In this document: positions 11,149 through 12,675 of the stretch, in pieces
How the letters are laid out: each line of letters starts with the position of its first letter
How positions within the stretch are numbered: the first letter of the stretch is position 1
From: Escherichia phage PhiR70_1
Strand: one strand, 5' to 3'
Sequence record: PV340577
DNA length: 48,757 bases
Notes under the pieces: generated by a model
Told to the model about the DNA's origin: nothing
The model's database searches: none
The model's input: only the letters and a program-made list of their open reading frames with translations
Position numbers and translations under genes: made by a program

Positions 11149-12675
11149 ATGAAAAAAGCCATAGCATATATGCGATTTTCATCACCAGGTCAGATGTCTG
11201 GTGACTCATTAAACCGACAGAGAAGACTTATTGCTGAATGGTTAAAGGTAAATAGTGATTATTATCTTGATACCATAACATATGAAGATTTAGGATTAAG
11301 TGCATTCAAAGGAAAGCATGCACAATCAGGAGCTTTTTCGGAATTTTTAGATGCTATAGAGCATGGTTATATATTGCCAGGAACTACATTGTTAGTTGAA
11401 AGTCTGGACAGACTTTCAAGAGAAAAAGTCGGTGAAGCGATTGAACGTCTGAAATTGATTTTGAATCACGGTATTGATGTTATAACTCTTTGCGACAATA
11501 CAGTCTATAATATTGACTCTTTGAATGAGCCATATTCATTAATAAAAGCCATACTTATAGCACAAAGGGCAAATGAAGAAAGCGAGATAAAGTCAAGTCG
11601 GGTTAAATTATCATGGAAGAAAAAACGGCAGGATGCAATGGAATCAGGTACGATTATGACGGCGTCTTGTCCGAGATGGCTCTCCTTAGATGACAAAAGA
11701 ACGGCTTTTGTTCCAGACCCCGACAGGGTGAAAACTATTGAGCTAATTTTTAAACTCAGGATGGAAAGGCGCTCATTGAATGCAATAGCCAAGTATTTAA
11801 ATGATCATGCTGTAAAGAATTTCTCAGGAAAAGAAAGTGCATGGGGACCTTCTGTAATTGAAAAATTATTAGCGAATAAAGCTCTGATAGGTATATGCGT
11901 ACCTTCATATCGTGCAAGAGGGAAAGGGATAAGTGAAATCGCTGGCTATTATCCCAGAGTTATATCAGATGATTTGTTTTACGCTGTACAGGAAATTCGG
12001 TTGGCACCTTTTGGTATTAGCAATAGTAGCAAGAATCCTATGCTAATAAATCTACTTCGAACAGTTATGAAGTGTGAGGCTTGTGGTAATACCATGATTG
12101 TTCATGCGGTATCTGGAAGTTTGCATGGCTATTATGTTTGTCCGATGAGAAGATTACATCGATGTGACAGGCCATCAATAAAAAGAGATTTGGTTGATTA
12201 TAATATCATTAATGAATTGCTTTTTAATTGTAGCAAAATTCAACCAGTTGAAAACAAGAAAGATGCTAATGAAACTTTAGAGTTAAAAATTATTGAGCTT
12301 CAGATGAAAATTAATAATTTAATCGTTGCATTGTCTGTCGCGCCTGAAGTTACCGCTATAGCAGAGAAAATAAGACTATTAGATAAGGAATTACGAAGGG
12401 CTTCGGTATCATTGAAAACTTTGAAGAGTAAAGGTGTAAATTCATTCAGTGATTTTTATGCTATTGACTTAACCAGTAAAAATGGACGAGAGTTATGCCG
12501 TACACTTGCCTATAAAACATTCGAAAAAATCATAATTAATACGGATAATAAAACCTGTGATATCTATTTTATGAATGGCATTGTTTTTAAACACTATCCT
12601 TTAATGAAAGTAATATCCGCCCAGCAGGCGATAAGTGCTCTCAAATATATGGTTGATGGTGAGATTTATTTCTAA
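11149..12675 (+). CDS. ybcK: Large serine recombinase (DLP12 YbcK-like)
   Basis: 508 aa; N-terminal resolvase-type catalytic domain (AYMRFSSPGQ...R), Cys-rich zinc-ribbon region (CEACGN...CPMRRLHRC), C-terminal coiled coil; AT-rich. Confidence 0.8.
   Translation: MKKAIAYMRFSSPGQMSGDSLNRQRRLIAEWLKVNSDYYLDTITYEDLGLSAFKGKHAQSGAFSEFLDAIEHGYILPGTTLLVESLDRLSREKVGEAIERLKLILNHGIDVITLCDNTVYNIDSLNEPYSLIKAILIAQRANEESEIKSSRVKLSWKKKRQDAMESGTIMTASCPRWLSLDDKRTAFVPDPDRVKTIELIFKLRMERRSLNAIAKYLNDHAVKNFSGKESAWGPSVIEKLLANKALIGICVPSYRARGKGISEIAGYYPRVISDDLFYAVQEIRLAPFGISNSSKNPMLINLLRTVMKCEACGNTMIVHAVSGSLHGYYVCPMRRLHRCDRPSIKRDLVDYNIINELLFNCSKIQPVENKKDANETLELKIIELQMKINNLIVALSVAPEVTAIAEKIRLLDKELRRASVSLKTLKSKGVNSFSDFYAIDLTSKNGRELCRTLAYKTFEKIIINTDNKTCDIYFMNGIVFKHYPLMKVISAQQAISALKYMVDGEIYF

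Follow-up and report, generated by a model that had tools for sequence, protein, structure and literature searches.

A conserved large serine recombinase gene, ybcK, carried as accessory cargo by a lambdoid prophage that integrates with a tyrosine integrase

We analyzed a 48,757-nucleotide stretch of DNA from Escherichia phage PhiR70_1 (sequence record PV340577; 'the window' below is this whole stretch), which holds an apparently complete lambdoid prophage with Int, Xis, exo/bet-type recombination genes, a CI-type repressor, O, P, ren, nin genes, Q, a porin, and head, tail and tail-fibre genes. An open reading frame (ORF) of 508 codons with an ATG start lies ~11 kb into it, after ren and before the nin genes, and can be identified from its sequence as ybcK, the 'putative recombinase' of DLP12-type lambdoid prophages: the surrounding 5.2 kb are 99.6% identical to Escherichia coli K-12 and 100% identical to other strains, and the ORF there is annotated 'ybcK: recombinase family protein'. 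We describe here a gene that is intact and under strong purifying selection, whose predicted product has the complete architecture of an integrase-type large serine recombinase (LSR), and which belongs to a lineage living in phages that already carry another integrase.

The domain composition of YbcK is that of a serine integrase along its whole length. Pfam models place a Resolvase domain (PF00239) at residues 4–161 (E 5e-19), a Recombinase domain (PF07508) at 191–284 (E 2e-14) and a Zn_ribbon_recom domain (PF13408) at 302–357 (E 8e-8), and an AlphaFold model with a mean predicted local distance difference test score (pLDDT) of 80.5 shows a catalytic domain, a long alphaE helix, a recombinase domain, a zinc ribbon, an antiparallel coiled-coil hairpin (helices 368–397 and 401–427) and, after it, a small C-terminal module. 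In a 24-sequence family alignment that reaches down to 30% identity, R9, S11, D87, R88 and R91 are invariant, as are the four zinc-ribbon cysteines C309, C312, C331 and C339; a loss of catalytic residues on alignment, which a first-pass annotation of these letters had named as grounds for dropping the recombinase, is therefore not what we find. A single-sequence phmmer search of YbcK against the sequences in the PDB returned no match, and a family profile was required to reach the solved structures. That profile matches SPbeta SprA (E 5e-19) across the recombinase, zinc-ribbon and coiled-coil regions, and also the catalytic domain of TP901-1 integrase, where S11 aligns with the nucleophile serine of 'YTRVS' and LDRLSR with LDRLSR. 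The comparison with characterised LSRs that had been proposed at first pass thus gives SPbeta, phiC31 and Bxb1 integrases as the best structural matches: Foldseek pairs the YbcK model with 9dxd (SPbeta, E 2e-18), 9tep (phiC31, 5e-14) and 9iu2 (Bxb1, 1e-13), all of them full-length integrases. Among the PHROGs, integrase (E 4.5e-120) far outscores invertase (E 1.3e-21), and the 'DNA invertase' family phrog_125 aligns with the N-terminal part of YbcK only (residues 1–258). By every structural criterion, as judged from the sequence and the predicted fold, YbcK is a complete integrase-type LSR, and since the mechanism of the family is established, the residues are invariant and the fold agrees, it almost certainly works by serine-integrase chemistry. 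A role in anti-phage defence was considered and dropped, as PADLOC defence-system models gave no match for YbcK, YlcJ, YbcL or YbcM.

The gene is common and well kept. Of 5,426 complete E. coli genomes, 1,430 have the ybcK segment, in one copy each and rarely in two, and it also occurs in 11 records of sequenced lambdoid phages, among them PhiR68_2, PhiR34_1, Turner, 4A7, Perceval, D2, 1W and 3W; 97 of 98 ybcK loci are intact. Across 50 distinct intact alleles, the ratio of nonsynonymous to synonymous divergence (dN/dS) from the window allele is 0.07–0.10 at dS 0.10–0.18, and diversity at the first, second and third codon positions is 0.013, 0.006 and 0.045. Because of this dN/dS, neutral decay is ruled out: ybcK is under strong purifying selection and is not a decaying relic. 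In the literature that we searched, there was no study of recombination activity of YbcK.

YbcK is not the integration enzyme of this prophage, which integrates with a tyrosine Int and Xis encoded at its left end (Table 1); lying deep inside the prophage, ybcK lacks the edge position of an element's integrase gene. Its DNA is also compositionally distinct: the fraction of G plus C (GC) is 0.354 in ybcK, 0.272 in the spacer at 10895–11148 and 0.328 in that at 12676–13139, compared with 0.494 across the window as a whole and ~0.50 in the phage genes on either side. The first-pass annotation had read the locus as a 508-amino-acid serine recombinase with a resolvase domain, zinc ribbon and coiled coil, AT-rich together with both of its spacers, in a prophage that already has a tyrosine integrase, and all of this is borne out by the ORF, the Pfam matches, the modelled hairpin, the GC values and the integrase and excisionase genes.

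Table 1. Features of the window around ybcK, with the predicted domains of its product
Feature	Position	Strand	Remarks
Lambda-type tyrosine integrase	75–1145	-	Phage_integrase E 3e-40, plus Arm-DNA-bind_1
Excisionase	1123–1485	-	Prophage left end, with the tyrosine integrase
Low-GC mosaic module	10465–12716	+	Variant ren 3' end, emrE, ylcJ, ybcK and 41 bp; from breakpoint mapping; common to all ybcK-bearing E. coli phages
Inverted repeat GTTCAAACTGTAG-N9-CTCCAGTTTGAAC	10512–10546		Upstream of emrE; kept in the ybcK-less relic
emrE (SMR multidrug efflux pump)	10562–10894	+	Left of ybcK in all 106 close loci with enough left flank
Hairpin GAGGCTC-N12-GAGCCTC, then T-rich run	10925–10950	+	Probable emrE terminator
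ylcJ	10942–11091	+	Hydrophobic 49-amino-acid small ORF; among the K-12 small proteins (PMC6001520)
Sigma-70 promoter GTGACC-17-TAAAAA	11059–11087	+	Assigned to ybcK in K-12 (PMC3946193); within the most conserved stretch of the upstream spacer
Part of the ybcK 5' untranslated leader	11092–11148	+	Rho/NusG-dependent terminator reported in the K-12 ybcK leader (PMC4150792); extent approximate
ybcK	11149–12675	+	
YbcK catalytic domain	residues 1–127		Nucleophile S11
YbcK alphaE helix	residues 128–166		
YbcK recombinase domain	residues ~178–285		
YbcK zinc ribbon	residues ~300–345		C309, C312, C331, C339
YbcK coiled coil	residues 368–427		
YbcK C-terminal alpha/beta module	residues 433–507		
Variable cargo slot	12717–14529	+	Here a 268-bp unique segment, ybcL (13140–13691) and ybcM (13701–14498)
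Perfect 13-bp inverted repeat AAAATACGTGACA-N24-TGTCACGTATTTT	12874–12923		Downstream spacer, between ybcK and ybcL
Promoter-like TTGATT-N17-CATAAT	14531–14559	+	Upstream of ybcN; right limit of the slot; same stretch annotated minus_35_signal in phage 82 (X92588.1)

Full-length YbcK homologues, 37–61% identical, are widespread in Enterobacterales, and they fall into two kinds of setting. (Distant relatives on viral contigs were found by querying with the Yersinia and Erwinia homologues, as a family-profile scan was dominated by E. coli copies.) The outgroup relatives, 37–43% identical to YbcK, include a recombinase of E. coli FDAARGOS_944 that is 37% identical over the full length and sits at the very edge of a degraded prophage in mdtG with no tyrosine integrase annotated. 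Comparison of this element with the empty site gives a 7-bp core, TCAGCAT, as well as an attP (attachment site of the phage) with imperfect inverted arms that ends 36 bp before the start codon; the recombinase is 99% identical to Ec07, and the attP reconstructed here equals the one independently predicted for Ec07 (PMC10083194). At the far end of the Ec07 prophage (34314–34865 of that locus), beside attR, there is a gene for a 183-amino-acid 'recombinase family protein' that could be an invertase or a resolvase. In Mixta, Serratia, Leclercia and Rahnella (loci L151–L154, gene at 10001–11527), recombinases 94–98% identical to one another head a low-GC island whose common DNA starts 80–200 bp upstream of the recombinase gene and which occupies the same syntenic host locus in three of the four genera. 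Given this identity across four genera, three of them at one syntenic locus, the island appears to be a recently spreading integrative element, and both the Ec07/mdtG and the Mixta/Serratia-type lineages have, on genomic comparison, the features of true element-edge integrases with attP just upstream of the gene.

The clade to which YbcK itself belongs is instead represented, time after time, by a single gene within one of two accessory regions in temperate phages. The first, from the replication genes to Q, is where it is found in E. coli, Atlantibacter RC6, two species of Pantoea and four viral contigs; the second comes after the tail-fibre genes, close to the end of the prophage, and is occupied in Atlantibacter, Yersinia, Erwinia, Ewingella, Ca. 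Pantoea symbiotica and Citrobacter pasteurii as well as in viral contigs. The genes stand solo in variable orientation, some copies are on plasmids, and GC is often 5–15% lower than in the surroundings; the neighbours are accessory cargo, namely Ail/Lom proteins, an acyltransferase, an autotransporter, SRAP, UmuDC-like genes and DinI. In a neighbour-joining tree, both edge-integrase lineages fall outside the YbcK clade, and the nin-region and tail-end members are intermixed inside it. The first-pass suggestion that ybcK is a relic integrase of another element consequently stands as to ancestry, with relatives that are edge integrases (Ec07 in mdtG and the Mixta/Serratia-type island), but not as to decay, given the dN/dS values and the proportion of intact loci.

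Several of the homologous loci have features of their own. A P gene seemingly split by the recombinase in one locus (L156) proved to be two paralogous fragments, as the two matches overlap in P coordinates. In Yersinia enterocolitica, a tRNA-Leu 3' fragment (…GGTTCAAGTCCCGCCCCGGGCACCA) lies ~190–250 bp past the stop codon of the homologue, between the end of a lambdoid prophage and an adjacent P2-like prophage, and because it separates the two, they would be tandem prophages at one tRNA site. Downstream of the Pantoea coffeiphila homologue (12013–13894 of that locus), a pair of small ORFs (62 amino acids on the plus strand and 142 on the minus strand) is tandemly duplicated (12013–12643 and 13264–13894). 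In Citrobacter koseri, ~15 tandem CTTGTTT heptamers (~9700–9805 of the locus) separate a PilV/shufflon-like gene from the YbcK homologue, in a plasmid-like or integrative and conjugative element-like region (MobA, TraD); tandem repeats of this kind give slipped-strand phase variation.

We searched the prophage for a site on which YbcK could act, and, as the first-pass annotation had noted, none is obvious. DNA flanking ybcK has no partner repeats elsewhere in the 48.7-kb prophage beyond chance-level matches. Its remark that no inverted repeats marking a target were seen by eye calls for a correction: the search of the flanking spacers that had been suggested uncovered the perfect 13-bp repeat at 12874–12923, of a kind seen in only 0.05% of composition-matched 464-bp random sequences. 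This repeat is probably not a recombinase site, and as an attP it was rejected. Its sequence forms a stable hairpin with A- and T-tracts on its flanks (dG -18.9 kcal/mol, z -3.9), and it occurs once in each of the 675 genomes that carry the ybcL–ybcM ('window-type') slot and in no others; since it is missing from the other ~750 ybcK genomes, it cannot be a site that YbcK needs. It also overlaps a minus-strand promoter-like site (12916–12888), and a terminator or a regulator site for ybcLM are possibilities. The inverted repeat upstream of emrE was likewise rejected as attP, because the ybcK-less relic described below keeps it, so that it belongs with emrE and not with the recombinase. A conserved upstream stretch (11015–11104) is accounted for by the published promoter and the Rho leader. 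Past the ybcK stop codon, the DNA is highly divergent (diversity 0.16–0.26).

Comparisons across relatives were equally negative. Gapped local alignment of the window flanks with those of 13 distant homologues found no conservation (best z 2.9, none above 3), and a downstream motif, ATTAATTATCTTTGACGAA, that appeared to be held in common with Atlantibacter is a chance match at z = 1.7. Upstream regions of 28 members of the YbcK clade show dyad symmetry no higher than control DNA in scans that were ungapped and weak, with a positive-control attP scoring just 16/24, and Ec07-type half-sites or an mdtG-type attB (bacterial attachment site) occur in the window no more than expected by chance. No permuted or inverted arrangement at ybcK was seen among ~120 related loci; three odd loci that might have been permuted prophages turned out to reflect an IS2-type deletion and a different replication module. 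Every E. coli ybcK match, among the matches listed, has the same left flank. Thus no cognate YbcK site is evident in the prophage by scans of limited sensitivity, and the first-pass ideas of inversion or secondary integration gain no positive support, with neither paired prophage sites nor a rearranged locus in their favour.

We favour, with somewhat more confidence than doubt, the reading that ybcK is an intact LSR gene carried as a solo accessory in an acquired low-GC module, descended from integrases and kept for recombination in trans. The YbcK clade would then descend from true integrases, and the gene would be retained since its product still catalyses canonical serine-integrase recombination. 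YbcK dimers would bind two sites of ~40–50 bp and synapse through their coiled coils, S11 would cleave both strands at a central dinucleotide, and the subunits would rotate by 180 degrees before religation. The sites would lie outside the immediate neighbourhood of the gene, so that YbcK would act in trans.

Published data from K-12 suggest how such a gene could be controlled. Genomic SELEX (systematic evolution of ligands by exponential enrichment) assigned a sigma-70 promoter to ybcK and marked it as H-NS-associated (PMC3946193), Hfq/polyphosphate binds ybcK DNA (PMC10954037), and the Rho/NusG-dependent terminator of the leader limits ybcK mRNA, which rises in Rho and NusG mutants (PMC4150792). 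Applied to the window, these reports would have ybcK silenced in the lysogen by H-NS and Hfq–polyphosphate binding together with the Rho-dependent leader terminator. Because the gene lies in the lambdoid pR operon, N-type antitermination from pR would be expected to override Rho, and ybcK would be expressed mainly after induction or infection. The small ORF ylcJ overlaps the promoter, and its diversity by codon position (0.042/0.034/0.014) is lowest at the third, the opposite of purifying selection on a protein; the constraint on its sequence may act on the DNA or RNA (as promoter or Rho leader) rather than on a protein. No known RNA family was found within 10300–13300.

A first alternative is that YbcK is a back-up integrase that puts the same phage into a second chromosomal attB when the primary site is absent or occupied, with attP somewhere in the phage. 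Such a role would suit a family with true integrases among its members and a gene that is held under purifying selection within viable phages. We consider it unlikely, as the ybcK-permuted prophages that it predicts are absent from the ~120 loci, the E. coli matches listed share one left flank, the 76 loci with a defined right flank all lead to the ybcN promoter, and the scans, weak as they were, gave no attP-like dyad near ybcK.

Alternatively, ybcK with short flanks could be a self-mobile minimal element, a tiny serine-recombinase transposon of the TnpX/TndX kind that enters accessory regions of phages. The variable neighbours and orientation of a solo gene across genera, its often lower GC and the intermixing of nin-region and tail-end members in the tree would all be expected of such an element, and so would the comparison of the window with a chromosomal relic near fliE/yedK. 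There, an emrE–ybcL–ybcM block ~90% identical to the window lacks a 2,083-bp segment (10902–12984) that holds ylcJ and ybcK; E. coli genomes carry it by the thousand (with 2,741 records falling into the 90–95% identity band). In E. coli HS (NC_009800.1; 4001–6153 of our locus L001), for example, the relic corresponds to window positions 10486–10901 and 12985–14715 and lies between fliE and yedF/yedK; it carries 186 bp of the phage ybcN promoter region and adjoins an IS200/IS605 tnpA and pseudogenes. Since the ybcN promoter stretch is included and tnpA and pseudogenes lie beside it, the block looks like the remnant of an older phage. The ends of the 2,083-bp difference, however, share only AATAAT microhomology and have no terminal inverted or direct repeats, and an LSR insertion with att-like ends was rejected on these grounds.

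The junctions of the low-GC module also speak against self-mobility. In the window, the gene order is emrE–ylcJ–ybcK–ybcL–ybcM–ybcN, and the left side (ren, emrE, ylcJ, ybcK) is common to all close loci; in other variants, the module reaches ~125 bp beyond the ybcK stop codon. It stands in for ~1.5 kb of a PhiR5_1-like backbone, and the 5' part of rha is lost with them, so that this gene is left truncated. This rules out a clean insertion of the emrE–ybcK module: the junction with the backbone is a substitution typical of lambdoid mosaicism and not a clean site-specific insertion. With one and the same context throughout the 1,430 E. coli genomes, never more than two copies in any of them, no flanking motif conserved among homologues and a 'split P gene' in L156 that was no insertion, we regard a self-mobile element as quite unlikely.

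That ybcK is an inactive relic or moonlighting protein, persisting by hitch-hiking or by an effect other than recombination such as solvent tolerance, strikes us as very unlikely. It would fit a gene with no known substrate that is silenced in K-12 and whose over-expression in BL21(DE3) raised sabinene tolerance, which deletion lowered, in a paper that gives no mechanism (PMC7181518). Yet the dN/dS values rule out neutral decay, and, if catalysis and DNA binding did not matter, it would be hard to see why the catalytic residues and four zinc ligands are invariant across genera.

Downstream of ybcK, the region up to the ybcN promoter, which all 76 loci with a defined right flank reach, is a slot of variable content. 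It falls into 13 length classes and holds, in other phages, at least 12 other contents, including an alpha/beta hydrolase, a C-terminal fragment of a Rha/P22AR antirepressor with various ORFs, insertion sequences (IS), or almost nothing (the O157 type); the ybcL–ybcM content of the window is found at 28 of 80 viral loci. Breakpoints are scattered at +41, +66, +278, ~+420 and ~+486 from the ybcK stop codon. Integron-like cassette capture at a fixed site 41 bp past the stop was ruled out by this scatter among the 13 classes, most of which share a ~420-bp Rha-fragment block. A cis-acting switch, in which YbcK would invert or delete a prophage segment such as this slot to vary its expression, might be suspected from the variable DNA directly downstream and the statistically unusual repeat at 12874–12923, but it is highly improbable, as the breakpoints do not fall at one site, no segment is bounded by paired repeats, the repeat is single-copy and confined to the window-type genomes, and no inverted locus was seen.

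More broadly, the interval from ren to ybcN (window 10495–14529; loci L094–L096) is a cargo hotspot of lambdoid phages that always ends at the same ybcN promoter and holds, as alternatives, SIR2 or PD-lambda-1 defence genes, a Rha antirepressor, an acyltransferase/lipoprotein, an alpha/beta hydrolase, or emrE–ybcK–ybcL–ybcM. The prophage has other cargo as well: a Gram-negative porin gene downstream of Q (16775–17857, minus strand) and, in low-GC DNA near the right end, an AraC-family regulator (46989–47741, plus strand); the two presumably match nmpC and appY of DLP12.

Several observations weigh against our preferred reading, that ybcK is a former integrase gene kept for recombination in trans. 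Conservation is the whole basis for the proposal that YbcK still catalyses recombination, and the proposed timing of expression is taken from K-12 data on a defective prophage. The neighbour-joining tree that separates the clade from the edge integrases has no bootstrap support. The copy in Atlantibacter is 540 bp away from the ssrA 3' end, where integrase genes are typically found, and some tail-end homologues, seen without the far prophage end, could be primary integrases. Although the dyad scans near ybcK did not rise above random, a positive-control attP reached only 16/24, so a cis site could be missed. A bolder form of the proposal, in which the YbcK clade is an LSR lineage that left the role of primary integrase and became an internal, pR-transcribed and Rho-gated early-lytic gene of lambdoid and other temperate phages, recombining a target in trans upon induction or infection (a site in a competing prophage, a satellite or the host chromosome, for instance), we regard as doubtful. 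If it were true, phages would be using a serine integrase in a biologically new way, for conflict or cooperation between elements.

The interest of the locus lies at the level of the clade, a strongly conserved serine integrase lineage living in phages that already carry another integrase. About one complete E. coli genome in four carries the gene, the K-12 and B laboratory strains among them, and it is not junk; a silent, intact recombinase in such common strains could cause rearrangements once silencing by H-NS or Rho is relieved. If its target were found, YbcK could either give genome engineering a well-behaved Gram-negative serine integrase, a purpose for which the related Ec03 and Ec07 have been catalogued, or show phages putting such enzymes to non-canonical use.

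Compared with known systems, several homologues of YbcK sit just after tail-fibre and chaperone genes, as the invertases Gin, Cin and Pin do in Mu, P1 and e14. The Hin/Gin/Cin/Pin invertases, however, are ~190 amino acids long with a C-terminal helix–turn–helix, and act on an invertible segment with opposed alternative fibre genes, whereas YbcK has 508 amino acids with recombinase and zinc-ribbon domains, and at these loci the chaperone gene is single, with neither opposed copies nor paired repeats. TnpX of Tn4451 and TndX of Tn5397 are LSRs that move an element without a separate directionality factor; unlike these models for a self-mobile gene, ybcK was found with no defined element ends, circular junction or multiple insertion sites. 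SPbeta SprA and the integrases of phiC31, Bxb1, Listeria LI and TP901-1 have the architecture of YbcK (catalytic domain, alphaE, recombinase domain, zinc ribbon and coiled coil), at 14–19% sequence identity to the solved phage integrases and Foldseek E values of 2e-18 to 1e-13. Each of the solved enzymes is the sole integrase of its phage, its attP adjoins the gene and its directionality factor is known, features that are not established for YbcK. The catalogued LSR with assigned attP and attB that is nearest to YbcK is Ec07, found in E. coli mdtG (Durrant et al. 2022, PMC10083194): it has 509 amino acids, the same domain order and 40% identity over ~400 residues of the published table. Ec07 lies at a prophage edge with an attP (core TCAGCAT) ending 36 bp upstream of its start and splits a host gene, whereas ybcK is internal and no such site was found; Ec07 is placed outside the YbcK clade in the tree, and the window has no Ec07-like half-sites. 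Closest of all is YbcK (b0544) of the cryptic prophage DLP12 of K-12, the same gene at 99.6–99.7% nucleotide identity with identical neighbours, for which the literature covers regulation (Rho terminator, promoter, H-NS and Hfq binding) and a solvent-tolerance phenotype only. DLP12 is truncated, whereas ybcK of the window lies in a full-length, apparently complete lambdoid prophage. Taken together, ybcK is a long-annotated, functionally uncharacterised gene that is not a new kind of system and belongs as an ordinary member to a known enzyme family.

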